Shown here piece by piece: positions 37,463 through 58,320 of a DNA stretch of 64,000 nt; the first letter of the stretch is position 1, and each line of letters starts with the position of its first letter. Under the pieces are notes generated by a model, which searched no databases, was not told the DNA's origin, and saw only the letters and a program-made list of their open reading frames with translations. The stretch is taken from positions 32,001 to 96,000 of the IMG/VR virus record IMGVR_UViG_3300008952_000015; one strand, 5' to 3'. Position numbers and translations under genes: made by a program. The stretch is from a virus.

Positions 37463-39775
37463 CTAGCTTTGGGGCGTTTGCTTTCTTGTCGTAGGAGTCT
37501 CTTGCTCTGCCTTCTGTCTGGCTTTCCATTCTGCGTACTGAGCCTCATTCCTTTCAAGCTCTACGGCCCTCAGGCCTTCCAACGCTTTCGATGCTTCGTC
37601 TAAGTAGGCATACTCTTTCTCTCTTGAATCTCGGAAGGCTGATGCAAACCCAGTCTGAGCCTCTGTATCAGACTCTATTGCCTGACCATACATATTGAAC
37701 CAATACTTCCAAGCCTCTTTAGCTTCATCTGTTTTCTGCTGTTCTACAATCCAGTTTCCTTCGGCTTCTGTAAGGTTTGATGGGCCTCCACCGCCATTTT
37801 CGGCGCTCACTCTTCTTCTTAACTCTAGCTCGACTATCCCTACCTGCTTTCCATCTCGTGACTTCGCCATAAAAAATGCGTTTCCAAGCTTAAATTGACC
37901 CTGTGATCCATCCCCTCTTGATACAAAGACTGTTCCGAGAGGATACTGTCCATCGGGACCTCTGGTAGCGCCTTTGGTCGCAACAAAGAATTTATTTAAA
38001 TCCATAAAGATCTTTTTGGACCCTGCTTCTTCTGGCTTTGAAGCCTCATCTGGCGTCTTAGCACGCGCTCTATCAATAGCCGAAAAAGTAAGCTTATCGG
38101 CCAAAGCTCCATCCTTATTGTCCACTCTAAAGGCTTGTATTACTTGCTTTTTAAGCCCATCTCTCTTCATAATTTCTACTACATCATCTTTAGACTGCTG
38201 CGTTAGCTCTCCCTCTGGACCTCGCTTAAAGGTATCAATCCGGCCCCATCTAGAAAGCAATTTGGTTCTCTCTGCTGCGACAGTCCCATCAGGATCATTA
38301 AGATATAGGTACTCGGTCAATAGCTCATCAGTAGGGGGAAGAGTCGCCTGTCCCTCAGACTCAGCTGGCTTTACAACCTTACCTTCAGAGGCCAAGTATT
38401 CTTTGCTCCATGCGTCCCATGCTTTTATCATGTACGAGTTGTTCCATCTGCCTTTATCGTCTAACGTGCGTCCTCCCCAATTCGGGATTTCAACCTTAGA
38501 TGCACCCTCTTTTCCATGAGTCTTAACGGCCCATTGTCGAAACTTAGTTCCGGTCGCTTCATTGTGAATCTTGCCGCCGGAATGAGCCTTCATATCAACC
38601 TTCGGCTTACTAGAGGTAGGCTTCTTTGTAGTAGCAGTATCACCTGTAGCAGTATCACCTGTAGCAGTATCACCTGCGGGGGTAGCCGTTTGCTCTGCAA
38701 AAGCCTTTGCTTCAGCTTCAGAGTTAAACCTCTTCTTCTCGCCTGTTACGGCGTTATGACCAAACCACATGTTGCTGCTTCTCTGATCATCAGGGCCTGT
38801 TCCTTCTCGCCAGTAATTGGCACTTTGTGTGGCGCTTGGCCTTCCCTTTGCACGGTCAGCAATCGCTGGTTCAGTATTGCCTGTAGCATACTTAGCTATC
38901 GGAGAAGTTCCTCTTGATGCACTCTTCCATATTCCGTCATCAGACTTGTATCCATAGTAGGTAAACATAGCTTTTGTGGCCGGATCAGACCATGAGCAAT
39001 TCTGGTCAGTGAAACATGAAGGGACGTTGTCGCAATCCCAGTCAGTAGGACATTTGCTTACATAGTATTCAACTCTATCAGGAAGTCTGTCAGTGGCGGG
39101 TTGTCGTTGTCTAAAGATATATGTTTTATTGTCAGACCAATCAAAATCGCCCTCTTCCTTTTGTCGGATTCTTTCTTGTTTCTTTGAATGTCCAGCCTTC
39201 TCTGCGTCATGTGCATTTTTCCACGCAGTAAAGAGATCAGAGTTTCGTTCCTTGATAAGCCACCAAGCAAGGGGTTGTTTGACCATGTAAGATTCTAATG
39301 AACCTTGGTGTCTTCTAAGAACAGGAACTATAGACTTGTAACTCCCAGTTTCACCAGGAGGCAGCTTCGGCAGTTCACTTCTATCCAACATGGCGTTTAA
39401 GGCCTCATCATAGGCTGCTTCTTTATCCTTAGGTGAAAAGTCTTTCCAGTTTGCTTGAGCGCCACGCAGCGTATTAAAAGCGTTCGTATAAACTTTTTTC
39501 ATCCAGTTAAAAGTATTCAGGACACCCGCTTTATCGGAGGACAGCCCGTGTTCGCTGTCGGAGTAAATATCATAATCTGCCCAAATATTCTTAACGAAAT
39601 CCTGATAGGCGGCATCACAGAGTTCGTAAAATTGCCTAATCAAAGCATTGTTTTGTGCCGTTAACCTAGCTGACTTAACGAGCCTCAATGCACTTACAGT
39701 CTCCGCTTGTTTTGTATGCCCTCGTTGTTCCAAGGCTTTCGCCAGTCTTCCTAATTCTCTTTGTTCTATATTCAT
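37463..39775 (-). CDS. Hypothetical multidomain protein with N-terminal shared leader motif
   Basis: 770 aa; begins ELGRLAKALEQRGHTKQAETVSALRLVKSA; low-complexity linkers. Confidence 0.8.
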   Translation of the reverse strand: MNIEQRELGRLAKALEQRGHTKQAETVSALRLVKSARLTAQNNALIRQFYELCDAAYQDFVKNIWADYDIYSDSEHGLSSDKAGVLNTFNWMKKVYTNAFNTLRGAQANWKDFSPKDKEAAYDEALNAMLDRSELPKLPPGETGSYKSIVPVLRRHQGSLESYMVKQPLAWWLIKERNSDLFTAWKNAHDAEKAGHSKKQERIRQKEEGDFDWSDNKTYIFRQRQPATDRLPDRVEYYVSKCPTDWDCDNVPSCFTDQNCSWSDPATKAMFTYYGYKSDDGIWKSASRGTSPIAKYATGNTEPAIADRAKGRPSATQSANYWREGTGPDDQRSSNMWFGHNAVTGEKKRFNSEAEAKAFAEQTATPAGDTATGDTATGDTATTKKPTSSKPKVDMKAHSGGKIHNEATGTKFRQWAVKTHGKEGASKVEIPNWGGRTLDDKGRWNNSYMIKAWDAWSKEYLASEGKVVKPAESEGQATLPPTDELLTEYLYLNDPDGTVAAERTKLLSRWGRIDTFKRGPEGELTQQSKDDVVEIMKRDGLKKQVIQAFRVDNKDGALADKLTFSAIDRARAKTPDEASKPEEAGSKKIFMDLNKFFVATKGATRGPDGQYPLGTVFVSRGDGSQGQFKLGNAFFMAKSRDGKQVGIVELELRRRVSAENGGGGPSNLTEAEGNWIVEQQKTDEAKEAWKYWFNMYGQAIESDTEAQTGFASAFRDSREKEYAYLDEASKALEGLRAVELERNEAQYAEWKARQKAEQETPTTRKQTPQS
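38631..38675. repeat. 15-bp tandem repeat x3 (GDTAT linker)
   Basis: gtagcagtatcacct x3, in frame. Confidence 0.9.
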
Positions 39776-39796
39776 TATAACCCCTAAGTCCTTTTT

Positions 39797-40321
39797 TTAT
39801 TTTCTCTCAAATTTCCCGTCAAACGAGTTGAGAAAACTAAAGAAATCTTCAAACTCATTTTGTTCAAGAATATTAATAGGTTTATTATTACATCGTTCTA
39901 TATTAGCAGGTGGAGAAGACTCTTCTGATTCAATATTTGATTCTGCTCCAAAAAAACTCTCCGCAACTTCTTTGTCCTGTTGCTCATATTTGTCTCTTTG
40001 CCTATGAGATACGTCTTCACCGTGACTACCGTAAGGCACATCGAATAACCCATGAGCCTTCTTTCCTATTTCATCATCATCTGTAAAATTATTGCCCGGT
40101 TCGGGGTCGTCGGAATAGCTTATAATGCGCTGAGGCATCTTATCCTTAAGAACAACTCCTGTTTCATAGTTTCCAATTAAATCTATTATACTAAAAGCAT
40201 CATCATCAGAAGGACACTCCCCCTCTTTCGCATACTTAGCCAAGGCGCTCAGGAAGGCTGCCTCTTTATGAAACCCTTTTTTGTAAAGATATGCTTTCAA
40301 TTTTAAGAGTTTATCAAACAC
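39797..40321 (-). CDS. Acidic hypothetical protein with N-terminal shared leader motif
   Basis: KLLKLKAYLYKKGFHKEAAFLSALAKYA; GAGGA RBS with GTG start. Confidence 0.75.
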   Translation of the reverse strand: MFDKLLKLKAYLYKKGFHKEAAFLSALAKYAKEGECPSDDDAFSIIDLIGNYETGVVLKDKMPQRIISYSDDPEPGNNFTDDDEIGKKAHGLFDVPYGSHGEDVSHRQRDKYEQQDKEVAESFFGAESNIESEESSPPANIERCNNKPINILEQNEFEDFFSFLNSFDGKFERK

Positions 40322-40336
40322 GGCATCCTCAGCTAT

Positions 40337-41149
40337 TTAGCCTCGACTGACATTCCCGCCAGCAGTTAATGAGAACTCTCTTGAGATTCGCTTAGCCATT
40401 TCATTGATCCTATCAGAAGCAGTTGCCTCTACTGGCGCATCATCTATTGCAGCCTGATCTTTTACAGCTTGCTCAACCGTCTCTGTGGTTTCTGACTGCT
40501 CGTTCAATATGGCTTCCAACTCAGGAGGAATTTCCATTTCTGCACTCTTTAATATAGCATCAAGTCTATCTGCAAGATCGGAATGACCTAGCTTATCCAA
40601 GTGATTTGCTAATTTTATTATTTCTTTCTTCATTTTAATATCTCCATTTTTAGATAATTCTAAAGGTGAAATTACCTTATTACTAACATTAGTAATAGAT
40701 GCTGGTCCAAAATTAGGAGTAAAAGCGTTCTCACGGGACTCAGCAACGCCCTCTCCTCCGGGGAAAGCCCCATCCTTATGATCATCAATATGAGCTAACT
40801 CGTGTATTAATGTTTTAGCAACCCCGTTCAAAATATCTTGAAACACTGGATCTGATTCATCCATCTGATTTATTTTAGACAGAATATCTTGGGGCCATTC
40901 CTTCTCAAGATTTGTAACTACTATATTTATAGTCTCTATGTTTCCATCATCGTTCGTATCTTCTGTTGTAACGTAGGCCTTTGCGTCAGGTGCTATACCT
41001 GGAGGCAAAGCTTGGTGAAACTTAAGTTTATCTCTGTTGCCTAACACGGCATGTACTGGGCCAGGAAGGTTTGTAATCTTCCTTAAACCGCCCTCTATCT
41101 TATCCCAATAACTTGGTCTTGCTATCTTTTTCATAAGCCTCTCACTCAT
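40337..41149 (-). CDS. Zincin-like (HELAH) protein with internal copy of the shared leader motif
   Basis: LIHELAH...GEGVAE; internal MKKEIIKLANHLDKLGHSDLADRLDAILKSA. Confidence 0.75.
   Translation of the reverse strand: MSERLMKKIARPSYWDKIEGGLRKITNLPGPVHAVLGNRDKLKFHQALPPGIAPDAKAYVTTEDTNDDGNIETINIVVTNLEKEWPQDILSKINQMDESDPVFQDILNGVAKTLIHELAHIDDHKDGAFPGGEGVAESRENAFTPNFGPASITNVSNKVISPLELSKNGDIKMKKEIIKLANHLDKLGHSDLADRLDAILKSAEMEIPPELEAILNEQSETTETVEQAVKDQAAIDDAPVEATASDRINEMAKRISREFSLTAGGNVSRG
40678..40697. promoter_or_regulatory. Intragenic inverted pair of motif B
   Basis: tattactaa-ca-ttagtaata (9-bp inverted repeat), about 45-65 nt upstream of an internal GGAGA-RBS ATG at 40633. Confidence 0.5.
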
Positions 41150-41163
41150 TTCTTAATTATACC

Positions 41164-41577
41164 TTAAAACTTTGGGATAAAAACCCTTGACTTTCGAGGC
41201 TTTTTATAATAGGTTGATGTTGTAATTATATCTATACCTTCGGGCCTTATTACAGAAAAGAAAAAATTAAATGCTTTTCTTGTTTTAACTTTCCTTATCT
41301 CTATCCAGCTTCTCTTTTTGGAATCTATACTTGATGTGTTTGAGACAAACATATGAACAACTCCATCAGCACTTACGGCAAAGTCTTGAGCTATAATGTC
41401 ATTAAGCTGCCTATTACTCAGGTCCTCTAGCATATCTCTTCTGTCCGACCAGAATTCATTAAAATACTTCCTATATTTAATTCTAGCAGTAGTAGATACA
41501 CGAATTGGAAGTCCGGTCCTCGGATCGGTTAGTGTCGCTTGCTCCATCCCTGCGTTCTTTATATGATCAGTCTTCAT
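41164..41577 (-). CDS. Hypothetical protein
   Basis: First gene after the terminator; N-terminus MKTDHIKNA. Confidence 0.7.
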   Translation of the reverse strand: MKTDHIKNAGMEQATLTDPRTGLPIRVSTTARIKYRKYFNEFWSDRRDMLEDLSNRQLNDIIAQDFAVSADGVVHMFVSNTSSIDSKKRSWIEIRKVKTRKAFNFFFSVIRPEGIDIITTSTYYKKPRKSRVFIPKF

Positions 41578-41619
41578 ACTCTGTCCTAAAGCTTACAGAA
41601 TATTACCTAATATTAGCAT

Positions 41620-41648
41620 AAAAAAAGCCCAACTAAAAAGTTGGGCTT
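41620..41648 (-). terminator. Rho-independent terminator
   Basis: aagcccaact-aaaa-agttgggctt stem-loop with a minus-strand U run. Confidence 0.8.
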
Positions 41649-41671
41649 AAATTAGACATATTAAATGTTTT

Positions 41672-41932
41672 TTATAAGGATACGAAATAAGCTAAAAACT
41701 TATACAGATCATCCTCTGTCTCTACCTTTAGGTCTTTTGGCATTTTCTCATACCCCGCCTTTACCATCTGAACATTATTATCAATATAATGTTGCTCAAC
41801 AAGCCCTCTTTCTACTGCCATTATAGATCCGTCAAAGCTGAGCTGTAACGTCGATAACTCGTCAAGGTCAATCTCTTTAAACCTATTTTTATGAAGTGGC
41901 ATATCCAGCCATACAAAATCAGACATTATCAT
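41672..41932 (-). CDS. Hypothetical protein
   Basis: Coupled ORF ending before the terminator. Confidence 0.65.
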   Translation of the reverse strand: MIMSDFVWLDMPLHKNRFKEIDLDELSTLQLSFDGSIMAVERGLVEQHYIDNNVQMVKAGYEKMPKDLKVETEDDLYKFLAYFVSL

Positions 41933-42890
41933 ACTCCAGCTTATCTTCCCATCTATCTTCGTTTTGTTTGGCAGCCTCTTTGTCTGCCTCTATCTGCTCA
42001 AGCCTTCTCTCTACACGTCGCTTGCCACGATATGATTCAGTTCCCATAAGTGAAGTAATTAAATACTCAGGCAAAGTATCTGCAAGCAGGATTATTACAT
42101 CATCATATTTAGAATCCGTAAATTGCAACAGAAGGTCATCGTAATTAAAATACTTCTCTTTGTTTTCAACCAAGCTCTTTAGACCTGCAACAGAAGAATC
42201 TGACGAGGCATCACTACGAATCTTTCGTGCGGTTTTCAGCGTTAAAAATCCAGACTCAACGTATTGGCTATACATAGCGCCCCTTGCTGCGTAACAAGGC
42301 TTTGTCTTTGAAAAGAATATCTCCTCTTCAGTAAGGTCTTTAAATGCAGTTGGAAGACTATTTGCATAGTTTTTAAGGATTTTTCTAAAAGTTTCTCTTA
42401 CATAATTATTATGTTTTTGAATCTCCCAAGTCTTGCTGAAGAGATTGTCCCACTTAAAACTGTCAACCATTCCTGCCGCAGCAATAGCATACCCTCTGTA
42501 TCCGTTCCAAATGTCGTGAGCAGAAGTGTTCTCTGTAAAAAGAGACTCCGCTAAATCCGCTATAGGCTTTTGCCAGTCAGGAATAGAGTATAGATTAAGA
42601 TCAATAGTCTCAGCATGTAACAGAATTGCATTTAAGAAATTCTCATCGCTCTCTACTGTAGCTCGCTTAACCTCTGGCAAAAGCATCTTACCATCTTTCA
42701 AGAGAAAGGTCTTTGCTGCAAGCAAGAGTCTTAGCTCAGGAGAGGGAGAGGGAGAGGTCGTACTTCTGGGGTTACGATAATGCCTAGAGTTAACATAGAA
42801 AAGCTTTCTTAAGCCTTGCTGCTGCATATACTCCATAGGTGTTAGGTCTTTAGTCATTAGAAGACTCCTTGATCCACCTCTTAAATTCAT
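41919..42890 (-). CDS. Alpha-helical HEAT-like family protein (paralog 3)
   Basis: C-terminal FTDSKYDDVIILLADTLPEYLITSLMG...RVERRLE; probable start ATG 42857 (AAGGAG RBS). Confidence 0.65.
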   Translation of the reverse strand: MNLRGGSRSLLMTKDLTPMEYMQQQGLRKLFYVNSRHYRNPRSTTSPSPSPELRLLLAAKTFLLKDGKMLLPEVKRATVESDENFLNAILLHAETIDLNLYSIPDWQKPIADLAESLFTENTSAHDIWNGYRGYAIAAAGMVDSFKWDNLFSKTWEIQKHNNYVRETFRKILKNYANSLPTAFKDLTEEEIFFSKTKPCYAARGAMYSQYVESGFLTLKTARKIRSDASSDSSVAGLKSLVENKEKYFNYDDLLLQFTDSKYDDVIILLADTLPEYLITSLMGTESYRGKRRVERRLEQIEADKEAAKQNEDRWEDKLEYDNV

Positions 42891-43227: not shown

Positions 43228-44826
43228 CTACTCTTTTTCCTCATTTATCTCACATACCGTTACTTCGGTAGTTAAGAGAGTCCCACTTGCTGAAGCGGCA
43301 TTTTGAATAGCGGATCTAACTACCTTTACCGGATCTATAATACCTCCATCTACCATGTCTGCAACGAAAGCACCTTTAAGCGCATCAAAGCCACAGGCTT
43401 TGTTTTTGGAGGATATAATCTTCTCCATATAAGAGTGATATTCCTCTCCGGAATTCGCCAACACTTGCTTAAATGGAGCCTTTATTGCCTTAAGGATAAT
43501 GTCTACTCCTACTAACTCTTCAGTCATCATAGGCTCCTTTCTTAGAGCCGCCAGATCCTTTACACAGTGTAAGAGTGCTGCTCCACCACCCGGAACAATG
43601 CCTTCTTCTATTGCGGCTTTAACTGCATTTATTGCATCCTCTACTCGATCCTTCTTCTCCTTAACCTCAGACTCAGATAGACCTCCTACGCTCAAAACTG
43701 CAACAGCTCCAGATAATGAAGACAAACGCTGCTTTAATGCGGCGTGCTCATAAGCCTCTAGTGATTGGTTGGCCTGAGCTTTTATCTGCCTGACCCTTTC
43801 ACCTACTGCCTCCTGTGTTCCTGCTCCATCAATTATAGAAGTTAAGTCTCTTAATACCGCGACCTTTCTGGCTTGCCCAAGATCCTCTAAGGCCAAACCC
43901 CTCAGGCTTCCCGTTACCTCAGAGGTAAATAACTTGCCCCCACATACAACAGCTATATCTTCCATCATATCTTTTCTTATGTCACCAAACCCAGGCGCTC
44001 TAACAGCACAAGAAACCAAAGCTCCACGAGCCTTATTTAATACCAAGGTCTGCAAAGCTTCTCCCTCAACTGTCTGAGCGATAACAAGCAGCGTTCTTCC
44101 TTCTTCAGAAATTGCTTCAAGAATAGGAAGTAACTCAGACGTTGCAGATATTTTGCCATCGTATAATAGGATATATGGATTATCTAATTCACACGACAGT
44201 TTCTCTAAGTTGGTGGCAAAGGTAGGAGTTATATATCCTCTATCAAAATTCACTCCTTCCGTATAAGAAACAGAAGTCTCAAGGCCGGTCGCTTCTTCTA
44301 CAGAGATCATACCGTCATCACCTACGGCAGCTACGACAGAACCTATAAGGTTCCCTAGCTTTACATCATTATTTGCAGATATAACAGCAACACTATTAAT
44401 TAACTCTTCACTATCAACAGACTGGCTTATATCATTCAGCTTGGCTACGACAACATCGACAGCTTTATCTATACCTCTTTTTATAAGAACAGGATTGTGA
44501 CCAGCGGAAACCATCTTAGCCCCTTCTGTATATATAGCTTGAGCTAAAACAGTAGCCGTTGTAGTCCCATCACCAGCAGCGTTATTTGTCGCACTTGCAA
44601 CGCTCTTGATTAGCTCCGCTCCCATATTTTGAACTCTATCATTCAAAGTTATTGACCTAGCAACCGTAACTCCATCTTTAGTTATAAGCGGTGGCCCGAA
44701 CCTCCTTTCAATAGCGGCGTTTCTGCCCCTTGGTCCGAGAGTGGCCTTTACCGCATTAGCCAAAACATCAAGACCCTCTTGTAACCCTTGTCTTGCATCA
44801 GAACTAAATCGAACTTCTTTACCCAT
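43228..44826 (-). CDS. groEL: Chaperonin GroEL
   Basis: AVKATLGPRGRN, ITKDGVTVA, AGDGTTTATVLA, APGFGD, AIEEGIVPGGG; start at MGKEV (GGAGA RBS); no GGM tail. Confidence 0.96.
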   Translation of the reverse strand: MGKEVRFSSDARQGLQEGLDVLANAVKATLGPRGRNAAIERRFGPPLITKDGVTVARSITLNDRVQNMGAELIKSVASATNNAAGDGTTTATVLAQAIYTEGAKMVSAGHNPVLIKRGIDKAVDVVVAKLNDISQSVDSEELINSVAVISANNDVKLGNLIGSVVAAVGDDGMISVEEATGLETSVSYTEGVNFDRGYITPTFATNLEKLSCELDNPYILLYDGKISATSELLPILEAISEEGRTLLVIAQTVEGEALQTLVLNKARGALVSCAVRAPGFGDIRKDMMEDIAVVCGGKLFTSEVTGSLRGLALEDLGQARKVAVLRDLTSIIDGAGTQEAVGERVRQIKAQANQSLEAYEHAALKQRLSSLSGAVAVLSVGGLSESEVKEKKDRVEDAINAVKAAIEEGIVPGGGAALLHCVKDLAALRKEPMMTEELVGVDIILKAIKAPFKQVLANSGEEYHSYMEKIISSKNKACGFDALKGAFVADMVDGGIIDPVKVVRSAIQNAASASGTLLTTEVTVCEINEEKE

Positions 44827-44977
44827 TTGTATCTCCATTATTCATTTTCTTAAAATCAACACCATCATTGATGGTATCATTAACCTTTGCAGCTATTAGA
44901 TAACCCATAAGAAAGAGTGATAGTACCAAAAATACTTGAAAACCAAGTATTATTTTGAACTGCAAATACTTCTCCAT
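44819..44977 (-). CDS. Small single-pass membrane protein (52 aa, below track cut-off)
   Basis: MEKYLQFKIILGFQVFLVLSLFLMGYLIAAK...; its stop overlaps the GroEL start. Confidence 0.5.
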   Translation of the reverse strand: MEKYLQFKIILGFQVFLVLSLFLMGYLIAAKVNDTINDGVDFKKMNNGDTNG

Positions 44978-45415: not shown

Positions 45416-46966
45416 ATGGAGAAAATTATGGACATATCAAACAGAGCGGCCTTACTTGAAACTATGTATAAAAGTGCTAACCCAGCCAGAGGAGCTGGCA
45501 AAGCAACCTCTGAAACCGTCAAAGAACTGTCTCAGCCATTCCTATCTCTTGAGGAGAGACAGGAGAGGCTAAGAGCGATTCAAAATTCGCTTCGTGGTGC
45601 AGATGGACCATTAACTTACACTGAAGAACAAAAGAAAAAACTAGCATCATATAAAGACCTTGTTGATAACTGGGATTCTTACAAAGAATATGTAAACCCC
45701 CAGTTACAAGCTTTGGGTGATTTGGTTGCCGAAAAAACTATTCTGCCAATCATAAAGGCTATAAAGGGTGGAGAGAAAGGAGCGGTAGAGCACGGAATTC
45801 CTGTTCCCAAAAAGCGCGATACAGCCAAAGCTGAAGCAGATATAAAGGCAACTGGATCAACCATTCACGATCTCCGATGTTTCAAGCAAACCTATGCCGC
45901 ACTTCAGAATAATACTTTTCATAAAATTGCCTCTTCAAAAATGGCTAGAGAAGACATATCCTCTGCCTTTCAAACAGAATTTGATAAGTCTTATGACATA
46001 TTCATAAAAAACGCTAAAGACTACGGAGATTTAGATCACGAGACATACGCTCAATTTCACGAACTTGCCGTAGCACATCATATTTTAACCCAAGAAGGGT
46101 TCGTTAAAGATGCTAAGGTTATAGATAACTTTGTCATAAAAAATGCTGGATTCTGGAGCACTGTAGGTGACGGGTTATCTGACGGGTTATCTTATGCTTG
46201 GGATGCAGCAAAAGGTGTAGCCTCAAAAGCTATTGAGTATGGTGGCAAAGCAATAAGCTTTGTTGCCGATGTAGCTGTCGGTGCAGTTAAAGCAGTCGGA
46301 AAGGCCGCATGGGGAGTGTTAAAAGGCTTAAAATATATCGTTACAAAGCTTCCTTTTATTGGAATCATTTTTTCTGCTCCCTTTTTCCTAAAAAATCTTA
46401 TTGAAAGTTACCAAAACGGAAAACGAATACTTTTAGAACAACCGCTTGAGAAATATGGATGGAACCCATATATCGTCATAACTCCCGCTGGTCTTGGTCA
46501 TGTTCGTTCGACGTTTATAAAAGCAGTTGATAAGCATAAGAAAGATCCAGACGCTCTAAAGGAAATCTTAACTATCTTTAGAACAATAGGCGCATTTTGG
46601 ATTGACCTTCTGTTTATGATAACTAATGGATTCATGCTCTTTCTTGACTTATGTGCTCTCATTGGATTCATAGCTGGGTTTTTTACTGCTGGTGCAGGTT
46701 GGCTGGTAGCTGTTGGTGCCTACGGAGGAAGCTTTCTCTTAGCCCTCGGAATAGGCGCATTAGAACTTGGTGCCGAATACTTCAAAGATGAAATGTGGGA
46801 CAAAGATTGTCTGTACTTACTCGATGAAGCTAAGAAGGAAATCAAAATCTTGCTATCAGAAGGAACCCCTGCTAAACGATCCAAAACTACGGTGGTAAAC
46901 CCCTATGAGGAATCTAGCTCTGATGTTATCGAAACATCAGAAGATCCTATTCCTATTGCTGCCTAG
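45416..46966 (+). CDS. Putative membrane-inserting virion protein with internal leader motif
   Basis: ELAVAHHILTQEGFVKDAKVIDNFVIKNA, then a Gly/Ala amphipathic region and a long C-terminal hydrophobic hairpin; probable start 45428. Confidence 0.75.
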   Translation: MEKIMDISNRAALLETMYKSANPARGAGKATSETVKELSQPFLSLEERQERLRAIQNSLRGADGPLTYTEEQKKKLASYKDLVDNWDSYKEYVNPQLQALGDLVAEKTILPIIKAIKGGEKGAVEHGIPVPKKRDTAKAEADIKATGSTIHDLRCFKQTYAALQNNTFHKIASSKMAREDISSAFQTEFDKSYDIFIKNAKDYGDLDHETYAQFHELAVAHHILTQEGFVKDAKVIDNFVIKNAGFWSTVGDGLSDGLSYAWDAAKGVASKAIEYGGKAISFVADVAVGAVKAVGKAAWGVLKGLKYIVTKLPFIGIIFSAPFFLKNLIESYQNGKRILLEQPLEKYGWNPYIVITPAGLGHVRSTFIKAVDKHKKDPDALKEILTIFRTIGAFWIDLLFMITNGFMLFLDLCALIGFIAGFFTAGAGWLVAVGAYGGSFLLALGIGALELGAEYFKDEMWDKDCLYLLDEAKKEIKILLSEGTPAKRSKTTVVNPYEESSSDVIETSEDPIPIAA

Positions 46967-47203: not shown

Positions 47204-47650
47204 TCAAGTATTGGCTTGAATTAACTTAAAGATTCTGCCATACTGTGTGAATTTACCGCCATCCTTTAAAAGCTTCGCAAGAGATAATAGAAATTCTCCT
47301 TCTCCCTCTCTATAATTTGGATTAGAGGATTTTCTTATGCCTTCAAGTTGAGGCAAATCTTTTTCCCATTTAGACAAGAAGTCACTTGGAGAATCACCCG
47401 TAAGCGATTTGAAGTATCTCAAGTAATCTGACAAAGATGCTGCGTTTACTCCCGCCTCTTTTGACCACCTAACATCGGCCTCGTTGATACTTTTTGCCTT
47501 AGACCCATAAGAAACAACAAATGGAAGCTCAAGGCTGTCCTTCTCCATAGGTATCCAGCCAAAGGTAATCTCCGTATCTGAAGCACGTTCTTCATGGTAT
47601 GCGAAGCAACTTTTTACTTTAAGCTTCTTTATAGTGTCATTACTACTCAT
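47204..47650 (-). CDS. Hypothetical protein
   Basis: Coupled to the glutamine synthetase gene. Confidence 0.7.
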   Translation of the reverse strand: MSSNDTIKKLKVKSCFAYHEERASDTEITFGWIPMEKDSLELPFVVSYGSKAKSINEADVRWSKEAGVNAASLSDYLRYFKSLTGDSPSDFLSKWEKDLPQLEGIRKSSNPNYREGEGEFLLSLAKLLKDGGKFTQYGRIFKLIQANT

Positions 47651-48707
47651 TTGATTCCTTATCTACCGCTGTAGCCTCAAGGAGATAAGTAGCTACCTTA
47701 TAGGGATCTGCGTTAGAGTTAGGTCTACGGTCCTCAAAGTACCCCAGACCCTGCTTTTCTACATGCCAAGGAATTCTAATTGAAGCGCCTCTATCTGAAA
47801 CTCCATAGCGAAACTCATTTATAGAGCATGTCTCATGTTGCCCCGTAAGCCTTCTCTCTAAGCCTTCTCCGTAAACGCTAGAAATCTTTTCTAAATTACT
47901 GGAAAGACCCAACTTTTCACAGGCTGCGTTAATATGCTCTAGACCACCCTCTTCTCGCATATCTTTCGTTGAGAAGTTAGTGTGCATACCGCTTCCATTC
48001 CAGTCGCCAGAAACAGGCTTTGGATCAAGCTCAATACTCAAGCCTCTTGTTTCGGCAATTCTGTTTAGAATAAACCTAGAAACCCACAGATGATCGCATG
48101 TAGCTACTGCATTAATGCCCGGTCCTCCAATCTGATATTCCCACTGACCTAAAGCTACTTCTGCGTTTACACCTACGATAGATATTCCAGAGCCTAAGCA
48201 AGCTGTCAGATGAAGTTCTGATACCGACCTTCCTTCAGCTAAGCCTCCACCAACAGCACAATAGTACGGACCTTGAGGATCTGGATCTCCAGACTTACCC
48301 CAGCCCATAGGTCTGTTAGTTTCAGTATCAATTATAAAGTATTCCTGCTCAAACCCAAGAAACGGCTCTGACCCTCCATGCTCTATCATGGCATCAATCA
48401 TCCTTGCTCTAGAGTTTGACGAATGAGGTGTCAAGTCTGCATTAAGAACATCACATAACACCAAGATTCCATTCTGCCTATTTGAGTCAACACAGGCGAA
48501 AACGGGCCTTAAAACGCAATCAGATGACTCAGTAGTAGCTTGCCCCGTACTGCTTCCGTCGAACCCCCATACGGGAATGTCTGAAAGACTTAACTTCCAA
48601 TCTTCATCCTCAGATTGGATGTTCAGAACCCTCGTCTTAGACCTAATCTGCGGCGTATCGCCTCCATCTAACCAAATATATTCGCACTTTAATGTAGCTG
48701 CACTCAT
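47643..48707 (-). CDS. glnII: Glutamine synthetase type II
   Basis: EYIWLDG..RSKTR, WGFDGSST, GFEQEY, PQGPYYC, NAEV..GQWEYQ, GDWNGSGMHTNFST, RLTGQHET, DRGASIRIP, YFEDRRP; 354 aa. Confidence 0.93.
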   Translation of the reverse strand: MSAATLKCEYIWLDGGDTPQIRSKTRVLNIQSEDEDWKLSLSDIPVWGFDGSSTGQATTESSDCVLRPVFACVDSNRQNGILVLCDVLNADLTPHSSNSRARMIDAMIEHGGSEPFLGFEQEYFIIDTETNRPMGWGKSGDPDPQGPYYCAVGGGLAEGRSVSELHLTACLGSGISIVGVNAEVALGQWEYQIGGPGINAVATCDHLWVSRFILNRIAETRGLSIELDPKPVSGDWNGSGMHTNFSTKDMREEGGLEHINAACEKLGLSSNLEKISSVYGEGLERRLTGQHETCSINEFRYGVSDRGASIRIPWHVEKQGLGYFEDRRPNSNADPYKVATYLLEATAVDKESNE

Positions 48708-50638: not shown

Positions 50639-50725
50639 TGGTAGGGATGATGGGACTCGAACCCATAAGATCATTTGATCGACAGATTTTAAGTCTGTTG
50701 CGTATGCCAATTCCGCCACATCCCC
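50639..50725 (-). tRNA. tRNA-Leu(UAA)
   Basis: GGGGATG...CATCCCT-A-CCA acceptor, D arm GGCGGAATTGGCATACGC, anticodon arm ACAGA-CTTAAAA-TCTGT, long variable arm, GGTTCGAGTCC T arm; encoded CCA. Confidence 0.95.
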
Positions 50726-50739: not shown

Positions 50740-51360
50740 TCAAATAATGTCAATAGAATTTTCAAACATATGTTTGACCTTCTTTTTTATCACCTTGTTA
50801 ATACCAGGGTTGATAGTTAAAACATTTTCCATCAGTTTGTGCCGGATAAGATTCCGCATATAAGAAGTGTCAGCGTTACTAGGATCTTCTAAGAATGGGA
50901 CTTCTTTTCTGGCGCACCAGCCCGTTAGAGCAAGTTTGCTGGTAGCTAAGAATGGTCTGATAAAGTTGTCCCGACTATATGGAATAAGCATTGGGTTGCC
51001 ATGAATGGATGTAAATAGCCATGTTTCAACTGCGTCATCTAGGTGATGGCATGTGATAATCTTTTTGTCTAAAAAGTTAGAGAAAAATGCGTATCTTTCA
51101 TTTCTCCAGTATTCTTCTTTTGATTCGTCAGAAGCTCGTTCTCTCTCTACCGTTCCGACCTCAAGTCGAAGATTTCTGTTCTCACAATAATTTCTAACAA
51201 AAGCTTCTGCTTTGGGCGCAAATGCAGTACCATGATTAAAATGGAGCACGAGCAATTCTCTATTGCTTCGACTAAGAAAGTCCAATACAGCCATGCTATC
51301 AGAGCCTCCAGAGACAGCTACCGCTACCTTCTTTGGAATACTCCCTAAAATATTAATCAT
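50740..51360 (-). CDS. tilS: tRNA(Ile)-lysidine synthetase, catalytic domain only
   Basis: AVSGGSDSM PP-loop, HFNHG, RNERY, CHHLDDAVET, IRPFL, EDPSN, RNLIRH. Confidence 0.88.
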   Translation of the reverse strand: MINILGSIPKKVAVAVSGGSDSMAVLDFLSRSNRELLVLHFNHGTAFAPKAEAFVRNYCENRNLRLEVGTVERERASDESKEEYWRNERYAFFSNFLDKKIITCHHLDDAVETWLFTSIHGNPMLIPYSRDNFIRPFLATSKLALTGWCARKEVPFLEDPSNADTSYMRNLIRHKLMENVLTINPGINKVIKKKVKHMFENSIDII

Positions 51361-51714: not shown

Positions 51715-52032
51715 CTATTCTATATACTCAGTTAATAAGTTTTTAATTTCTTCAAGGTCACTTGCATCAAATGACTCATATATAATACTAACAAGTTCGC
51801 TTTTAAACATTTCATTTGTAGCGTTTGCTTGAATTTCTGCCCTAAGGTCATCAAAGTCAGCCCCGCGACTATACCCCTCTTCTGCCTCTAGGCTAAGTTC
51901 ATCAGAGGTACTTGTAGCGACTCCATAAAGCTTATGTATCATGTCGTCAATATATATTGACTCCTCAGTCATCTCTAGTTCATAAAGTTCTTTTGATAAT
52001 CTTAATAATTCAGCTAACATTTTAATCTCCAA
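51715..52032 (-). CDS. Acidic protein with divergent shared leader motif
   Basis: MLAELLRLSKELYELEMTEESIYIDDMI; probable start 52020 (GGAGA RBS). Confidence 0.65.
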   Translation of the reverse strand: MEIKMLAELLRLSKELYELEMTEESIYIDDMIHKLYGVATSTSDELSLEAEEGYSRGADFDDLRAEIQANATNEMFKSELVSIIYESFDASDLEEIKNLLTEYIE

Positions 52033-52667: not shown

Positions 52668-52677
52668 ATATGCCTAC

Positions 52678-52956: not shown

Positions 52957-52992
52957 GGGTATATTATACCCATTATTATTTTCAGTCTCTAT

Positions 52993-53809: not shown

Positions 53810-53818
53810 TTCTTACTC

Positions 53819-54175
53819 CTATTTTATTCTATGTATAGCATAGCCTTCTGATACCATCAGGTCATTTACACTACACCAAGAACCATCTGGACTCTCTATC
53901 CATATGTTCGCCAAATATCGCCCATACTTACCCTTCTTGTCTCGTATTGTTTGAACAAGAACGCTTCTGTCTAAGACTTTAGACCTAAGAAAGTCCCTAG
54001 ACTCCCTTGCTTTTATCAAGGTCTTTCCTCTAAGCTCAGGAGAGTCTATTCCATAAAGTCTCATCTTCAAGCCATCTCGCTTAATCTTCATGCCCAAATC
54101 AAGACTTATAGTCACAGTATCTCCGTCATAAACGCCTGTAATAACCCCTTTGTAAAAATATAAGTTATCTATCAA
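53819..54175 (-). CDS. Thermonuclease (SNase) family protein
   Basis: VYDGDTV, RLYGIDSPE, GKYGRYLA, VNDLMVSEGYA. Confidence 0.9.
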   Translation of the reverse strand: MIDNLYFYKGVITGVYDGDTVTISLDLGMKIKRDGLKMRLYGIDSPELRGKTLIKARESRDFLRSKVLDRSVLVQTIRDKKGKYGRYLANIWIESPDGSWCSVNDLMVSEGYAIHRIK

Positions 54176-54184
54176 GTTTTCTCC

Positions 54185-55165
54185 CTAGATATAGATATGA
54201 GACACAGACGGAGGAAAAGTTCTTTCTGCATCAAGAAACTCTCTTACTCCATCTAAATTCTTTCTGCCTAATAGAAAAAGGGCGTAATCGCCTCTAAATG
54301 TCTTCATTTTTGTAAAATGTTTAAAACATAACTCAAATGATCTCACCATATCTTTAAAGTCACTTCCGGCAAGAAGAACTTTCCCATACACATCATTAAC
54401 AAGAGTTACTTTCTTCTGATATTCAGAATAATCTATAGTATCTGTGTCAACATATATTTGATATATAAGCTCAGATAGCGAAGGTGAAAAGTCTAATAAG
54501 TATCTTTTGGAATACTTAAAGGCCCTTAGCCCTGCGTATATTCTCTGAGACATAGAGCGATCACTCAGATAGTTTGTTGGGTTATTGATTCTTAATTTGA
54601 AATCATCAAAAGCAGAATCTAACGCAGAGTCATAATAAAGAACCCCATCGTGATAAGCAACGCAACAATTTATAAAATCAAAAGTCTCAAATAAATCTCC
54701 TATTGAAGAGACAGGCTTTTTTATAGCTTGAAAAACATATGATGTTGGGGCAACTTCTCTGAGAAAACTATTCGCCCACTTGCTAGTCTTTACTATTCTG
54801 TAGTCAGATCCAAGTGGAGAAGATAGACTCGGAACCCCAACCGTTTCTTTTAAGAGTGTATCAAGGTCTGATAGCATCCAAGATCCAAACCCATTAGAGT
54901 GTAATGGGCTGCTCTCAAAGAACCAAGCGTCTATATCTCCAAACTTATCTAGCTTGTCCTCAAAGACAACATTCCTAGTTCCACTGAAAGTGGCGGCTCT
55001 CTCAAGCTGCCTCCACTTTGAGTCTGAATCATAAAGCCGATAAGCTCTGTATACAGAGAGCATTGAGCCTCCTGCAAAAACAGGCTTTAGCTGCATGAGG
55101 TTATCATCTTTTACAATGTGACTTACAAGCCAATCAATTCGTTTATCGGAAATGGTTTTAATCAT
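54185..55165 (-). CDS. Pol-beta-superfamily nucleotidyltransferase-like protein
   Basis: FAGGS...DID.W and FDFINCCVAY motifs, as in phage PolyA/CCA-like NTases. Confidence 0.65.
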   Translation of the reverse strand: MIKTISDKRIDWLVSHIVKDDNLMQLKPVFAGGSMLSVYRAYRLYDSDSKWRQLERAATFSGTRNVVFEDKLDKFGDIDAWFFESSPLHSNGFGSWMLSDLDTLLKETVGVPSLSSPLGSDYRIVKTSKWANSFLREVAPTSYVFQAIKKPVSSIGDLFETFDFINCCVAYHDGVLYYDSALDSAFDDFKLRINNPTNYLSDRSMSQRIYAGLRAFKYSKRYLLDFSPSLSELIYQIYVDTDTIDYSEYQKKVTLVNDVYGKVLLAGSDFKDMVRSFELCFKHFTKMKTFRGDYALFLLGRKNLDGVREFLDAERTFPPSVSHIYI

Positions 55166-55971
55166 GTATGCTTTAGCTTTCGCTCTAAGGCTCTTGAGAT
55201 CCTCTCGCCAGCATTTCTTAGGTTAATAAAATACAAGGCATCTTCTGGTGACATTCGGCTAATTAAAGCCGTTAGCATCATTTCCATATTGCTATAGTTT
55301 AGATCTATAGACGGATCAAGCTCTTTTGCTTGCTCTATAAGAGGTGCAAACTCTTCTGGCTCAGCAAGGGCAATAGCCTGTCTGTGAAGCCAAGTTGACC
55401 ACCACCACTGGCTCTCTTCTTTATTCACAGTTAAAGAGGAAGGAAGAAAGGTCTTGTAGCAATTATCAACACCTATTCTTGTCATAGCCATGTTTCTTAC
55501 ACTATACTTCTTATCTCCCAGCATAGGCTTTAAAAACTTTACAGGCAGGATTCTTGCACACCTAGTTCTAATACGAGCATCAGGAGAGTTACGAAGCCTC
55601 TTAGCCATCTTAAGCCTAATTGACGAATGAGCATTGTCCAACATAAAGATTGCCCATACGCCACTGGAGCTGTTCGTTAAAACCTTTAGATCCTCTTGCC
55701 TTTGGACGCTCAAGGAACTCATTACAACCTCGTTGATTAGAACTCCAAATCTCTTTTTCGACCCCTTAGTAAAAGACGTTAGAGGGTAATGGTTCCATCT
55801 TGAATCTGAAATAAGCTTAGCCTTAGAGCGGCTAGACATAGCGTTCCATACCTCAAAGACTTGATCTGTATTACTAAAGGAAAGTCCTTGCCACCTTCTT
55901 CCGTCATCAGTTGTTGTAAGCCTTAGGGCTTTTGAAAATTTTTCATATGGATGATTTACAGCTTTCTTCAT
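55162..55971 (-). CDS. HEAT-like repeat protein (paralog 4)
   Basis: SPDARIRTRCARIL, MLGDKKYSVRNMAMTRIG; C-terminal ISRALERKL. Confidence 0.7.
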   Translation of the reverse strand: MKKAVNHPYEKFSKALRLTTTDDGRRWQGLSFSNTDQVFEVWNAMSSRSKAKLISDSRWNHYPLTSFTKGSKKRFGVLINEVVMSSLSVQRQEDLKVLTNSSSGVWAIFMLDNAHSSIRLKMAKRLRNSPDARIRTRCARILPVKFLKPMLGDKKYSVRNMAMTRIGVDNCYKTFLPSSLTVNKEESQWWWSTWLHRQAIALAEPEEFAPLIEQAKELDPSIDLNYSNMEMMLTALISRMSPEDALYFINLRNAGERISRALERKLKHT

Positions 55972-56026
55972 CGTATCCTCATATTGTTAAATTGTTATGG
56001 AAATTGTCTTAGCAAAATCCTATGTC

Positions 56027-56608
56027 TCATTTTCCTTTTTCCCATCTTTTTCTACAAATTTCTTCCCAATTTTTATGGCAATCAGAACAGAGGGTTCTGA
56101 TCCAGCCACCACTCCTCTCTTCGCCAGGACTTCCACATTCTTCACAAGTCTTGCAAGAAAGCTCTTCTGCTTTACTAATCAAGTTATAAATCTCATCATT
56201 TCCAGCGGTCATATAGAATCTAAGTCCACCATACTTTTCTTTTACCTGTATTGCTTTTGGGTAAGATCCCTTGTATTCATCACAAAAGCAAGCATAGTAG
56301 TTTACAGGCGGCTTCTCCTTTGACTCTAAATCTTCATGGATGGATAGACACCTTCCTGGGCTTTGCGTCTTACAGGCGTAATGACGCTCCTTAGAGCACC
56401 CACATTTAGAACAGGACAGATTGGGGTTGTCGTCAATAATACCCTGTATGATAGGCTCAAGCTTTGAGGATAAATCCCAAACTATATCAAACCATCCATC
56501 GCCACACTCAAAGCCCCAACACATGCAGGTTGCTTGCATCGAACCTTGTCTGTCGCTATAAAGAAGCGGAAAGCTCTCAACCAGCTTTTTATCTAACTCT
56601 TCATTCAT
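56027..56608 (-). CDS. Conserved phage-type Zn-binding hypothetical protein
   Basis: ECGDGW..., QVKEKYGGLRFY, CEECG...WIRTLC..C, with an extra Cys-rich insert. Confidence 0.7.
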   Translation of the reverse strand: MNEELDKKLVESFPLLYSDRQGSMQATCMCWGFECGDGWFDIVWDLSSKLEPIIQGIIDDNPNLSCSKCGCSKERHYACKTQSPGRCLSIHEDLESKEKPPVNYYACFCDEYKGSYPKAIQVKEKYGGLRFYMTAGNDEIYNLISKAEELSCKTCEECGSPGEERSGGWIRTLCSDCHKNWEEICRKRWEKGK

Positions 56609-56704
56609 CTTAAGCCCTTAAGTATTAAATGGCAAGACCCAGCCAACCTGCCTGTTGCTACGCAACCCACCCACTACGAACGGGGTAACTTCATAATATA
56701 TCAG

Positions 56705-56917
56705 TTAGCCCTTATCCTGAACGAACTGATAAAGTTTTTCAGCTTCTTCTAAAACGTCTTCTGTCGTATAAGGCTCAACGGCATCACGCTGCCCCTCTGG
56801 TCTTAAGTGTTCATTTTGAAATTGTTGGTTTACCCGACTTTCCAAAATGCCAATAGCCATCCCCAATAGATCTGTGCGAATCTCATATCCGTTTTTATTT
56901 ATATTATATGTGCTCAT
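56705..56917 (-). CDS. Small phage hypothetical protein
   Basis: NGYEIRTDLL..A...PYTTEDVLEEAEKLYQFV, a pattern recalled from T4-like phages. Confidence 0.7.
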   Translation of the reverse strand: MSTYNINKNGYEIRTDLLGMAIGILESRVNQQFQNEHLRPEGQRDAVEPYTTEDVLEEAEKLYQFVQDKG

Positions 56918-56993
56918 TTCATCTTCTCTCTCTGTGTTAAAGGCTTAATTGCCTCAATTATATTATACCACAAAAAGATTAACTTATACTAAG

Positions 56994-57364
56994 TGGTGGA
57001 GGCGGCGGGAGTCGAACCCGCGTCCAAAATAAGTCACGCATCAAGTCATTCACAAGCTTGTCTGATGTATTCCCACAACAGCAAGGTAGCTACAGAAAAC
57101 CCTTTTCCTATGTAGCCTCGGAAGCCCACTCATTAAAATGAGGCATCCATCTTGATTTTTTATTTTAGCAGGATCTCTACCTGTTATTTAACATTGGATT
57201 ACAAGGCTGTTAAAGGCCCAGACAACTAAGCTGCTAAAGCAAATTCGTTGTAGTAATAATTGTCATTGGCAATTATAAGTTTTGCAACAAGTTTTAAGCC
57301 ATTTGTTACCGTAGACTGCTTGCACTATCCGCTATCATTACCCTGTCGATACCATTTCGCCCCC
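56994..57364 (-). ncRNA. ssrA: tmRNA; tag (A)ANDNYYYNEFALAA at 57226-57270
   Basis: 5' GGGGGCGAAATGGTATCGAC; 3' GGACGCGGGTTCGACTCCCGCCGCCTCCACCA; G3-U70 pair; tag ORF GCC AAT GAC AAT...GCT TTA GCA GCT TAG; 371 nt. Confidence 0.95.
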
Positions 57365-57386
57365 ATATATAGATTAGGTCAAAGTC

Positions 57387-57410
57387 ATATAATTGATGTA
57401 GAAAAAATAA
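57387..57410 (-). promoter_or_regulatory. Motif A copy
   Basis: atataattgatgtagaaaaaataa, about 22 nt upstream of the tmRNA 5' end. Confidence 0.7.
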
Positions 57411-57426
57411 CAAAAATTATTACAAG

Positions 57427-57870
57427 CTAGTTAGAAAGGCGGTATATGCAGTAGCCGCTATTCTCCTTAACGACGCTTAAATCTAAAGAAACACTCCTTT
57501 GAAAGCCTCTTGAGGTCTTGCCATCTTTCTTTATATCCCTTCTGACAGCTATAAAGGCATGTCCTCCTTTTCTCAAAAGAGACTTAATAGAACTTAAAAT
57601 TTCACTTTCAGACTCTTCGCTTACAACATTTAAAACATAAGTGCATAATATGGTGTCAAAAGACAGCCCTGTAAGGTCCATAGGTCGCCAATGTGGGTCG
57701 TAAGCCTCAACAGTATGTCCGGCTTTTTTAAGGTGGTCAAAGTCAGCTCCCCTTCCACAGCCGTAGTCTAGAATGGCTCCACTTAGTAGGCCACTCTCTT
57801 GAAGGAATCTCAAAGGAGCCGAAGCTGCCTTTCTGGATATAGCGGTATTATAACTTTGTACAGTTTGCAT
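57427..57870 (-). CDS. Class I SAM-dependent methyltransferase
   Basis: ILDYGCGRG.D, YDPH, FDTILCTYVLNVV. Confidence 0.85.
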   Translation of the reverse strand: MQTVQSYNTAISRKAASAPLRFLQESGLLSGAILDYGCGRGADFDHLKKAGHTVEAYDPHWRPMDLTGLSFDTILCTYVLNVVSEESESEILSSIKSLLRKGGHAFIAVRRDIKKDGKTSRGFQRSVSLDLSVVKENSGYCIYRLSN

Positions 57871-57936
57871 ATCAACTCCGTTATCATGTTATGATGTATA
57901 TCTTGCTTTTATAGTAAGCAGCATTGAATGGAGTGC

Positions 57937-58320
57937 TTACTCATCCCTATGTAGAATATCTTGAAACAGCTGATCTGCCTGTGCTCTTTCCTCGTCTGTA
58001 GGAGCACCTGCACCTTCTACCTCTGCTGCCAACTGATTCATTTCTCTTACAGCCGCAGCTGCCGCGCCGTTCATATCTAATCCAAACTCTTGAATATTTC
58101 GCATAAACAAAGCTCTAAACATATCTGCATAAGACTCAGGATCTAGCCAATCGCTATCCAGAAAGCCTTTATGCACAGCCTCATCCTCCCTGCTCAAAGG
58201 CTCATTATTAAAGCCTTCCGCAAGAGTTCCTGCGAACTTGTCTAAAACATCAGCTTCTTTAGCTAACCCCTTGCTATCTAGCTCTTGAGCTAATTTCAAA
58301 ACCTTTGTTAATAATGACAT
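57937..58320 (-). CDS. Acidic protein with N-terminal shared leader motif
   Basis: KVLKLAQELDSKGLAKEADVLDKFA; AAGGAG RBS. Confidence 0.75.
   Translation of the reverse strand: MSLLTKVLKLAQELDSKGLAKEADVLDKFAGTLAEGFNNEPLSREDEAVHKGFLDSDWLDPESYADMFRALFMRNIQEFGLDMNGAAAAAVREMNQLAAEVEGAGAPTDEERAQADQLFQDILHRDE

Follow-up and report, generated by a model that had tools for sequence, protein, structure and literature searches.

A Recurrent Two-Helix Hairpin on Unrelated Proteins of Uncultured Jumbo Phages as a Candidate Docking Tag

We analyzed a stretch of 64,000 nucleotides (hereafter the window), which covers positions 32001-96000 of one virus contig of 128,565 bp, the IMG/VR record IMGVR_UViG_3300008952_000015. 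Proteins encoded in this window, elsewhere in the contig and in related virus records share a motif of ~28 residues, the tag, which is predicted to form a two-helix hairpin and is joined to bodies that are themselves unrelated. Judged from its sequence, the tag is a new domain family with clear modularity, outside current domain libraries. We tentatively propose that it acts as a portable alpha-hairpin docking tag that gathers diverse proteins, with the procapsid as the most likely destination and the carriers being packaged or ejected, a proposal to which we assign somewhat less than an even chance.

Results and Discussion

Membership of the Motif Family

The initial annotation had grouped six peptide segments of the window into one family, and all six are present in the sequence where it had placed them. 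The grouping itself holds in part: p127 and p270 are strong members and p174 and p770 weak ones, whereas p105 and p516 fail the profile tests. A profile built from four segments and run against the 2030 six-frame open reading frames (ORFs) of the contig recovered further copies outside the training set. The iterated profile retrieved ten copies from the contig with E-values between 6e-15 and 2e-11, as well as a further two with values of 1e-3 and 6e-3; in the controls, the best E-values were 0.18-3.6 in ten shuffled databases and 0.68 in the reversed set. When left out in turn, each of the twelve copies was the first non-training match (rank 12/2030, that is, directly after the 11 training rows), with E-values between 1.4e-11 and 0.8.

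The four accepted copies of the window are all on the minus strand. That of p127 (residues 5-32; 58225..58308, in gene 57937-58320) has a leave-one-out E-value of 4.7e-9, and that of p270, internal at residues 176-203 of 270 (40544..40627, in gene 40337-41149), one of 1e-6. The p174 copy (residues 3-30; 40232..40315), found in a gene with a GTG start (39797-40321) and followed by an acidic stretch, reaches 6e-7 with the broad profile and 0.11 when left out. The p770 copy (residues 6-33; 39677..39760, in gene 37463-39775) is of a divergent "SAL" subtype, with an E-value of 9e-12 when itself in training and 0.8 when left out, and it is not picked up by the broad family profile. Eight further copies were found by the profile in the same contig, all outside the window; the additional tagged ORFs are L003:13713-14276, 12976-13182, 11148-11840, 10058-10621, 9048-10061 and 2063-3313, together with L001:10501-11106 and L001:15978-16877, the latter with three copies.

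Regarding the two segments that fail, p105 (51950..52020, minus strand) is not supported as a member: it is without the invariant Gly and the LD/EAD residues, and its profile E-value is 6.6 at rank 17. The p516 segment (46061..46147, plus strand, in gene 45416-46966), after which comes a glycine-rich hydrophobic region, was found by no profile (leave-one-out test E 81, rank 91). A BLASTP comparison of p516 amino acids 214-251 with a canonical tagged protein of the relative L005, a partner picked post hoc, gives 47% identity over 38 amino acids at an E-value of 1e-5, and the alignment spans the tag as well as the subsequent "AGF.S.VG" of the relative's protein. The p516 segment may represent a decayed internal copy. 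Two weak motif-like segments were also observed on the minus strand of L001, namely MLADEMDGEGEHVMANFADFMIK in 4373-4918 (E 0.045) and ANTLEKHGQKDVAEMLVKIA in 13495-14982 (E ~0.5). The proteins in which they occur are conserved and flank the portal and terminase genes; the segments may be very old copies, or chance.

On average the copies are 49% identical in nucleotide sequence, and where they have the same residue they agree in the codon in only 40% of cases. These values rule out gene conversion or a DNA repeat as the source of the similarity, and conservation therefore acts at the protein level.

Anatomy and Predicted Fold

The consensus of the ~28-residue tag is KELIKLANhLDxKGLxKEADyLDxII, with a core at positions 3-26 (L-I-K-L-A-N-h-L-D-x-K-G-L-x-K-E-A-D-y-L-D-x-I-I). 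Conservation and position statistics were taken from the best 150 of 1993 library matches and are biased towards canonical copies; the conservation table comprises 127 N-terminal, 56 internal and 23 C-terminal copies. In all three classes L10, D11, G14, E18, A19 and D23 are conserved in 91-100% of copies, and a conserved hydrophobic stripe is found besides the near-invariant polar residues N8, D11, E18, D20 and D23. The L10-x3-G14-L15 pattern would fit a helix C-cap, and the predicted fold of the tag is a hairpin of two helices, with the invariant Gly turn closing it. The ESM Atlas model of p127 residues 1-40 is such a hairpin, and AlphaFold models agree on a helix-turn-helix. For the two-copy protein P0030 (67 amino acids), a single-sequence model has four helices, with a mean predicted local distance difference test score (pLDDT) of 84 and a predicted template modeling score (pTM) of 0.65. 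In the model of the L001:15978-16877 protein (pLDDT 67.5, pTM 0.32), residues ~118-273, including hairpins 1 and 2, superpose on four-helix bundles of the ferritin/Dps type at Z 8-10, a range which according to the search tool is common for helical bundles. This model suggests that hairpins 1 and 2 pack together within the chain. A complex prediction between two chains, each a copy of the motif alignment and run with no controls, scored 0.03 against a mark of 0.42 and counts neither way. Downstream of the tag the sequence is of low complexity and acidic, with a net charge of -2.3 over the next 30 residues.

Position and Copy Number

In ten of the twelve local copies the motif starts at residue 2-8, and most single-copy matches of the library begin at residue 3. 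Among 208 copies in 149 proteins, 129 are N-terminal (starting within the first 12 residues), 56 internal and 23 C-terminal (within 12 residues of the C-terminus). The motif had been described as an N-terminal leader, and the bias towards the N-terminus is real (129/208), but an obligatory leader it is not, with 79 of 208 copies internal or C-terminal and multi-copy forms common: 45 of the 149 proteins have two copies and seven have three. Some proteins contain little beyond two hairpins (67, 72 and 95 amino acids). In the 299-amino-acid protein of L001:15978-16877 the motif is internal and repeated, and several orthologues of this protein stop 2-6 residues past the motif. The layout of p270 comprises an HExxH (HELAHIDDH) region, the motif, a variable acidic linker and a conserved C-terminal tail, fused in a single ORF, and it is kept in both of the relatives found (2/2). 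Gene starts were set by simple ORF rules; an in-frame ATG two codons ahead of the p270 motif, with GGAG 8 nt upstream, makes a nested start possible within this gene.

Cargo of the Tag

Once the tag is removed, 164 N-tagged proteins fall into 116 BLASTP clusters, of which 100 are singletons, and the single large body cluster is an artefact of second motif copies. With Pfam at E<=1e-3, 90 of the 97 library proteins remain without a family, as do 48 of the 56 locus proteins, and PHROGs yields weak matches only, in 7 of 96 library proteins, one of them with a functional label. The bodies that can be named in relatives include two LysM domains plus a cell-wall hydrolase, LysM, ArdC-N, S-adenosylmethionine (SAM) methyltransferase, PilZ, cupin, AP2, phosphoheptose isomerase and zinc ribbons. 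Those of the contig are the HExxH region, PG_binding_1, an ArcS-like/DUF5591 domain and a DnaJ-type CxxCxGxG zinc finger (read by eye). Directly downstream of p127 lies an untagged SAM methyltransferase gene (57427..57870, minus strand; Methyltransf_23). To this enzyme a relative's protein consisting of the tag plus Methyltransf_23 (L100:11503-12150) is 49% identical, at an E-value of 2e-36. The same methyltransferase is thus tagged in the relative and untagged here, and the tag is therefore optional for a given enzyme.

The tagged gene L003:9048-10061 (minus strand) codes for the archaeosine-synthase-like (ArcS/DUF5591) domain (Pfam E 2.6e-7, NCBIfam E 5.4e-9). Its neighbors are a methyltransferase, a cupin/cysteine-dioxygenase-like protein, an enoyl-CoA-hydratase-like protein and DUF2827, a neighborhood that could be a nucleic-acid or sugar modification island.

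Distribution and Relation to Known Families

CheckV completeness is 38% for the contig, 66-68% for relatives of 222-233 kb, 94% at 317 kb and 99% at 332 kb, and these values make the lineage a jumbo phage with a genome of ~330 kb. The contig lacks over half of this genome, and probably the capsid gene with it. IMG/VR contains 310 portal relatives.

A profile of eleven local copies matched 1993 clusters at E<=1e-3, and 45 at <=1e-10, among 1.84 billion representatives. As anticipated from the window alone, these matches are numerous, biased towards the N-terminus (129 of 208 copies) and located on unrelated proteins. In a pattern scan of 185,579 species genomes only four loci were confirmed, all in short contigs of metagenome-assembled genomes. 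Viral contigs with exact patterns are mostly those found through the portal, and in the few cases where a taxon is recorded for an ESM Atlas look-alike cluster, it is Uroviricota. Related records have 3-22 matches each, often in tandem arrays, such as 12 genes within 9 kb of a 223-kb record and five within ~5 kb of this contig, and in a more distant clade tagged genes are zero or nearly so.

No significant match over the motif was found in Pfam-A, PHROGs v4, NCBIfam 20 or PDB sequences, and the motif maps to no known non-virion domain in these four libraries. The best database matches are phrog_13228, of unknown function, which aligns with residues 1-42 of one protein (E 5.7e-4), and PDB 2inw (E 0.79). 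Likewise, the SAP, HeH, LEM and Rho_N profiles of Pfam gave no match to eight window proteins (E<=0.1) or to 11 isolated segments (E<=10), and none appears among the families listed, at E<=1e-3, for 97 library proteins and 56 locus proteins. As to TPR/Sel1-type repeats, no TPR profile matched tagged proteins or segments; a YscG-type TPR chaperone model gave an E-value of 0.026, with a score well short of its cut-off. In a Foldseek search of a two-copy model against PDB, the best matches were designed bundles and consensus TPRs, all with E>0.5. Using tblastn, a canonical tagged protein retrieved nothing at E<=1 from 50,697 cultured phage records. For the tag, the ESM Atlas returned only unnamed viral clusters and generic hairpin look-alikes, word-based protein searches only unnamed metagenome proteins, and literature searches by motif string and concept nothing relevant.

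Tagged Genes next to the Packaging Genes

Tagged genes are found upstream of the genes for the terminase and the portal, at distances of one to six genes. In the slot one gene upstream of the terminase we observe L001:10501-11106 (minus strand) and, in relatives, L005:6658-7137, L042:5322-5942 and L081:6513-7400. The tagged genes of this slot have differing bodies (zinc finger, PilZ, LysM-hydrolase or a hydrophobic glycine-rich region), and the genes flanking it are conserved in 61-66 of 80 loci, with the local slot gene being matched in only one of the 80.

Six genes upstream of the terminase gene is L001:15978-16877, whose product consists of a disordered N-terminus, a small conserved beta domain (residues 74-119) and one to three hairpins. 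In the 80 portal loci 42 orthologues were found; the canonical motif is present in 24 of them, often at the C-terminus, and absent in 18, some of which have another helical tail while others stop with the beta domain. Where the orthologue is tail-less, records have 0, 0, 0, 0, 0, 1 (weak) and 3 tagged genes, as opposed to 3-14 in records with the canonical form, a split that follows phylogeny, and a 317-kb record with a different-tailed orthologue still has 13 tagged genes. The protein is better seen as one more carrier. It has no PDB sequence match, and no fold or sequence match names it. Its model was uninformative against BFVD, where the best match was an uncharacterised phage protein (E 5e-3, template modeling score 0.16), and a VIA-wide fold search with the same model gave generic helical bundles only. 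For the neighboring 519-amino-acid protein nothing was found in the ESM Atlas.

A Proposed Portable Docking Tag

From these patterns we infer that the ~330-kb jumbo phages would use the hairpin as a portable docking tag, in an architecture in which the tag is followed by an acidic low-complexity linker and by an unrelated cargo domain. The hydrophobic stripe, together with the polar residues N8, D11, E18, D20 and D23, would bind one common partner, either another hairpin copy, in a four-helix bundle, or a phage protein, and this binding would gather dozens of different proteins at one place. That place would most likely be the assembling head (procapsid), where the carriers would be packaged and, probably, later ejected, as with the T4 and P1 signals. 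Removal of the tag would not be needed. We favor a docking domain because of the position bias, the linker-plus-cargo layout, the diversity of the cargo, the multivalency, the invariant polar surface and the restriction to one lineage. The initial annotation had suggested a portable address, and given N-terminally biased matches on unrelated proteins and no known non-virion domain this was a fair reading. The procapsid is the best guess as to destination because of the T4 and P1 precedents, the wall, lytic, anti-restriction, methyltransferase and protease-like cargo, and the adjoining packaging genes; wall-lytic, anti-restriction, methyltransferase and HExxH cargo is in keeping with a place in the virion or with ejection. 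Should the tag serve for sorting or docking, a single short profile would mark the whole co-localised, and probably packaged or injected, set of this family, that is, ~2000 clusters from uncultured jumbo phages, nearly all without known function. It would also offer a handle on the loading of accessory proteins in giant phages, and a compact natural tag for trying the loading of foreign proteins.

A number of observations weigh against this proposal. The destination rests on analogy, since there is no cultured relative and neither capsid nor scaffold was identified in the fragment. The terminase is at most ~26% identical to anything among 50,697 phage records, a capsid search with Pfam PF05065 gave no match in the contig or in four relatives, and no scaffold gene was identified in the contig fragment, which is 38% of the genome. 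Several cargo domains (ArcS-like/DUF5591, cupin, PilZ, AP2, phosphoheptose isomerase and the DnaJ-type zinc finger) look cytoplasmic and favor an intracellular assembly or a host target, and five tagged genes lie among metabolic genes at L003:9048-14276, far from the head genes. Carrier bodies are acidic overall, at -6 net charge per 100 residues, and the T4 internal proteins are basic. The predicted four-helix packing comes from intramolecular models, with generic Z values. Finally, as a universal receptor for the tag the L001:15978-16877 protein is rejected, given that 18 of its 42 orthologues are without the canonical motif and that the record with a different tail keeps 13 tagged genes.

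Alternative Explanations

The cytoplasmic-looking cargo brings in an intracellular scaffold-and-client network, in which hairpins would pair with each other, one-copy proteins being clients and those with two or three copies linkers, so as to build an unpackaged assembly or condensate (a replication, modification or assembly factory). Such a network agrees with the two or three copies seen in 52 of 149 proteins, with the mini-proteins made of two hairpins, with the acidic low-complexity spacers after the tag and with the models that pack two hairpins together. In addition, enzymes related to DNA or metabolism (ArcS-like, methyltransferase, AP2, ArdC-N, cupin) are numerous among the clients, and the tagged genes of L003:9048-14276 are interleaved with metabolic ones. 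However, peptidoglycan-binding and lytic cargo suits a cytoplasmic factory poorly, and our literature searches found no phage precedent with a linear tag; we consider this network a doubtful but serious alternative. Unlikely as well, in our estimate, is that the hairpin is a self-pairing "sticker" and that the carriers build a phage matrix, either an inner capsid body or a cell factory, which would concentrate a fast-evolving library of dozens of enzymes, single-copy carriers being clients and those with two or three copies linkers and branch points. If true, such a matrix would be a genome-wide protein-sorting code written in one folded 28-residue domain of widespread ~330-kb phages.

The initial annotation had proposed a more specific model, a cleavable N-terminal capsid-targeting leader removed after K-x-A by the prohead protease, and this we judge improbable. 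Its observation that K-x-A follows the motif in five of six segments is literally true, but K-x-A is conserved much less than the core and is not supported as a conserved cleavage site. Ala stands at the fixed offset in 54% of N-terminal, 39% of internal and 17% of C-terminal copies and Lys/Arg in 80%, 66% and 69%, respectively, compared with 95-100% for core residues; besides, the core itself holds K17-E18-A19. On the side of cleavage, N-terminal copies have K/R27 in 80% and Ala/Ser29 in 65%, against 69% and 17% (Ala) in C-terminal ones, and a ClpP-family protease encoded at window 25793-26362 also matches PHROG head-maturation proteases. Cleaved head proteins have precedents in T4 and giant phages (PMC3012670, PMC7411985). 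Against it, the protease gene is not adjacent to the portal gene, and 79 of 208 copies are internal or C-terminal, some of them ending 2-6 residues before the stop codon. Nor is K-x-A in excess at the N-termini of other proteins: the extra sites that had been pointed out near the N-termini of neighbors are at chance level, with 0.46 per 100 amino acids in the first 45 amino acids of 169 untagged proteins versus 0.49 expected from composition, and 0.58 contig-wide. K-x-A marks the end of the predicted helix 2 and is weakly conserved; apart from a mild bias in composition, the sequences appear to lend no support to cleavage after it.

A host-directed domain has similarly little probability. Here the hairpin would bind a conserved host structure (a hub protein, the envelope or the nucleoid) and deliver varied effectors during takeover. 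The near-invariant, surface-type N8, D11, E18, D20 and D23 imply one common ligand, the tagged genes that are small and change fast stand in tandem arrays much like effector islands, and PilZ, anti-restriction and wall-binding domains are found among the cargo; yet the motif is also present on a conserved protein encoded among the packaging genes. Lastly, a DNA-binding SAP/HeH-like helix-extension-helix motif is highly improbable: some carriers are DNA-related, and the spacing of helix 1 and turn, L-x3-L-x2-[KR]-G-L, resembles the SAP consensus, but helix 2 is out of register with that pattern, the conserved surface is acidic and not basic, and no SAP, HeH, LEM or Rho_N profile matched the scanned proteins, or the isolated segments even at E<=10.

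Intergenic Elements

The palindrome TAATATTA at 41608..41615 lies directly after a hairpin and T-run, 31 nt upstream of gene 41164-41577, which leads the run formed by 41164-41577, p270, p174 and p770. Across the contig, seven of the 12 TAATATTA sites fall in the intergenic 10% of the sequence, 16-101 nt upstream of seven minus-strand genes that include 41164-41577, L003:13713-14276 and a 2294-amino-acid ORF; the other intergenic sites are at contig positions 36778, 77383, 93159, 100778, 108297 and 109389. It is possible that TAATATTA represents a second promoter class. The element ATAAATAATAG occurs seven times, including upstream of p127 and L003:2063-3313, and precedes only two of the 12 tagged copies, whereas CTATTAATATT shows no enrichment as a shared promoter (5 found vs 3.5 expected). 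A long, conserved promoter-like sequence, TTTTCTaCATCrGTTATAT, is present in ~25 copies, in either orientation, within the region of small genes at contig 109-128 kb (L004) and is also found on the minus strand of the window at 30893, 37394, 43199 and 51403. It is directly upstream of no tagged gene and was rejected as their shared promoter.

Gene Content of the Contig

The minus strand carries 156 of the 181 simple gene calls of the contig. Packaging is represented by a GpA-type large terminase and a portal, replication and repair by DnaE, a split DnaG and RecA, and chaperones and proteases by two GroEL paralogues, Hsp20, ClpP and an M16 peptidase; several sigma-factor-like proteins, HU, ThyX, glutamine synthetase and TilS are also encoded. 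The GroEL/Cpn60 paralogues are at window 43228-44838 and L002:6719-8377 (both minus strand), and the window further contains Hsp20 (24861-25385), the M16 peptidase (27248-28450), a DUF2201 metallopeptidase/VWA protein (28547-29689) and an AAA_5 ATPase (29759-30835). Together they form an unusually large proteostasis set. A phage-encoded transfer-messenger RNA with the tag peptide ANDNYYYNEFALAA is located at window 56994-57364 (minus strand), in the same contig as the ClpP-family protease. A tRNA-Leu gene (anticodon TAA) is found at window 50639-50725 (minus strand), just downstream of the TilS-like PP-loop gene 50740-51360. Three minus-strand genes, at window 31286-32389, 35742-36758 and 47643-48707, code for an IMPDH/GMP-reductase-family protein, adenylosuccinate synthetase and glutamine synthetase, respectively, and are purine and nitrogen auxiliary metabolic genes. 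Giant ORFs, all on the minus strand, are L112:793-7677 (2294 amino acids, downstream of a TAATATTA site and with no Pfam match), window 14406-20099 (1897 amino acids, with Ig-like and PKD domains) and window 20101-23616 (1171 amino acids).

Comparison with Known Systems

According to PMC3012670, the capsid targeting sequence is the sole common element of the T4 internal proteins, directs their loading into the scaffolding core and is able to carry foreign proteins as well. It resembles the hairpin in that diverse and fast-changing proteins have in common just one short N-terminal element. This trait of T4/P1 type is also seen here, yet 79 of 208 copies are not N-terminal. The hairpin is longer and apparently folded, is also internal, C-terminal or multi-copy, reaches a dozen or more per genome fragment and shows no conserved cleavage motif. 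In phage P1, according to PMC9024508, 30 or fewer N-terminal residues of DarB suffice to load a reporter into capsids, the authors suggest that the fold of this packaging signal may matter, and the Dar proteins have no consensus N-terminus. In contrast, the consensus of the hairpin is very strong and common to ~2000 protein clusters.

Other small modules offer further parallels. The P22 scaffolding protein has a C-terminal, basic helix-turn-helix domain that binds coat protein and docks inside the procapsid. The hairpin is likewise a small two-helix module, and the L001:15978-16877 protein often ends in the motif; however, the hairpin is acidic or neutral, no coat gene was found nearby and the carrier would be a scaffold by analogy only. 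The encapsulation peptides of microcompartments and the cargo-loading peptides of encapsulins are terminal helical tags with a flexible linker, at either protein end, which bring cargo to a shell. Like the hairpin, they join a helical tag and a linker to diverse enzymes, at one terminus or the other, but they are single amphipathic helices or short peptides of cellular systems, whereas the hairpin has two helices and belongs to phages. Polymorphic toxins and effectors, including those fused to phage MuF, combine a conserved N-terminal trafficking module with hypervariable C-terminal domains, in tandem arrays. Although the hairpin is much smaller and no toxin domains were recognised among its carriers, it resembles these systems in its conserved N-terminal module, its variable bodies and its tandem gene arrays.

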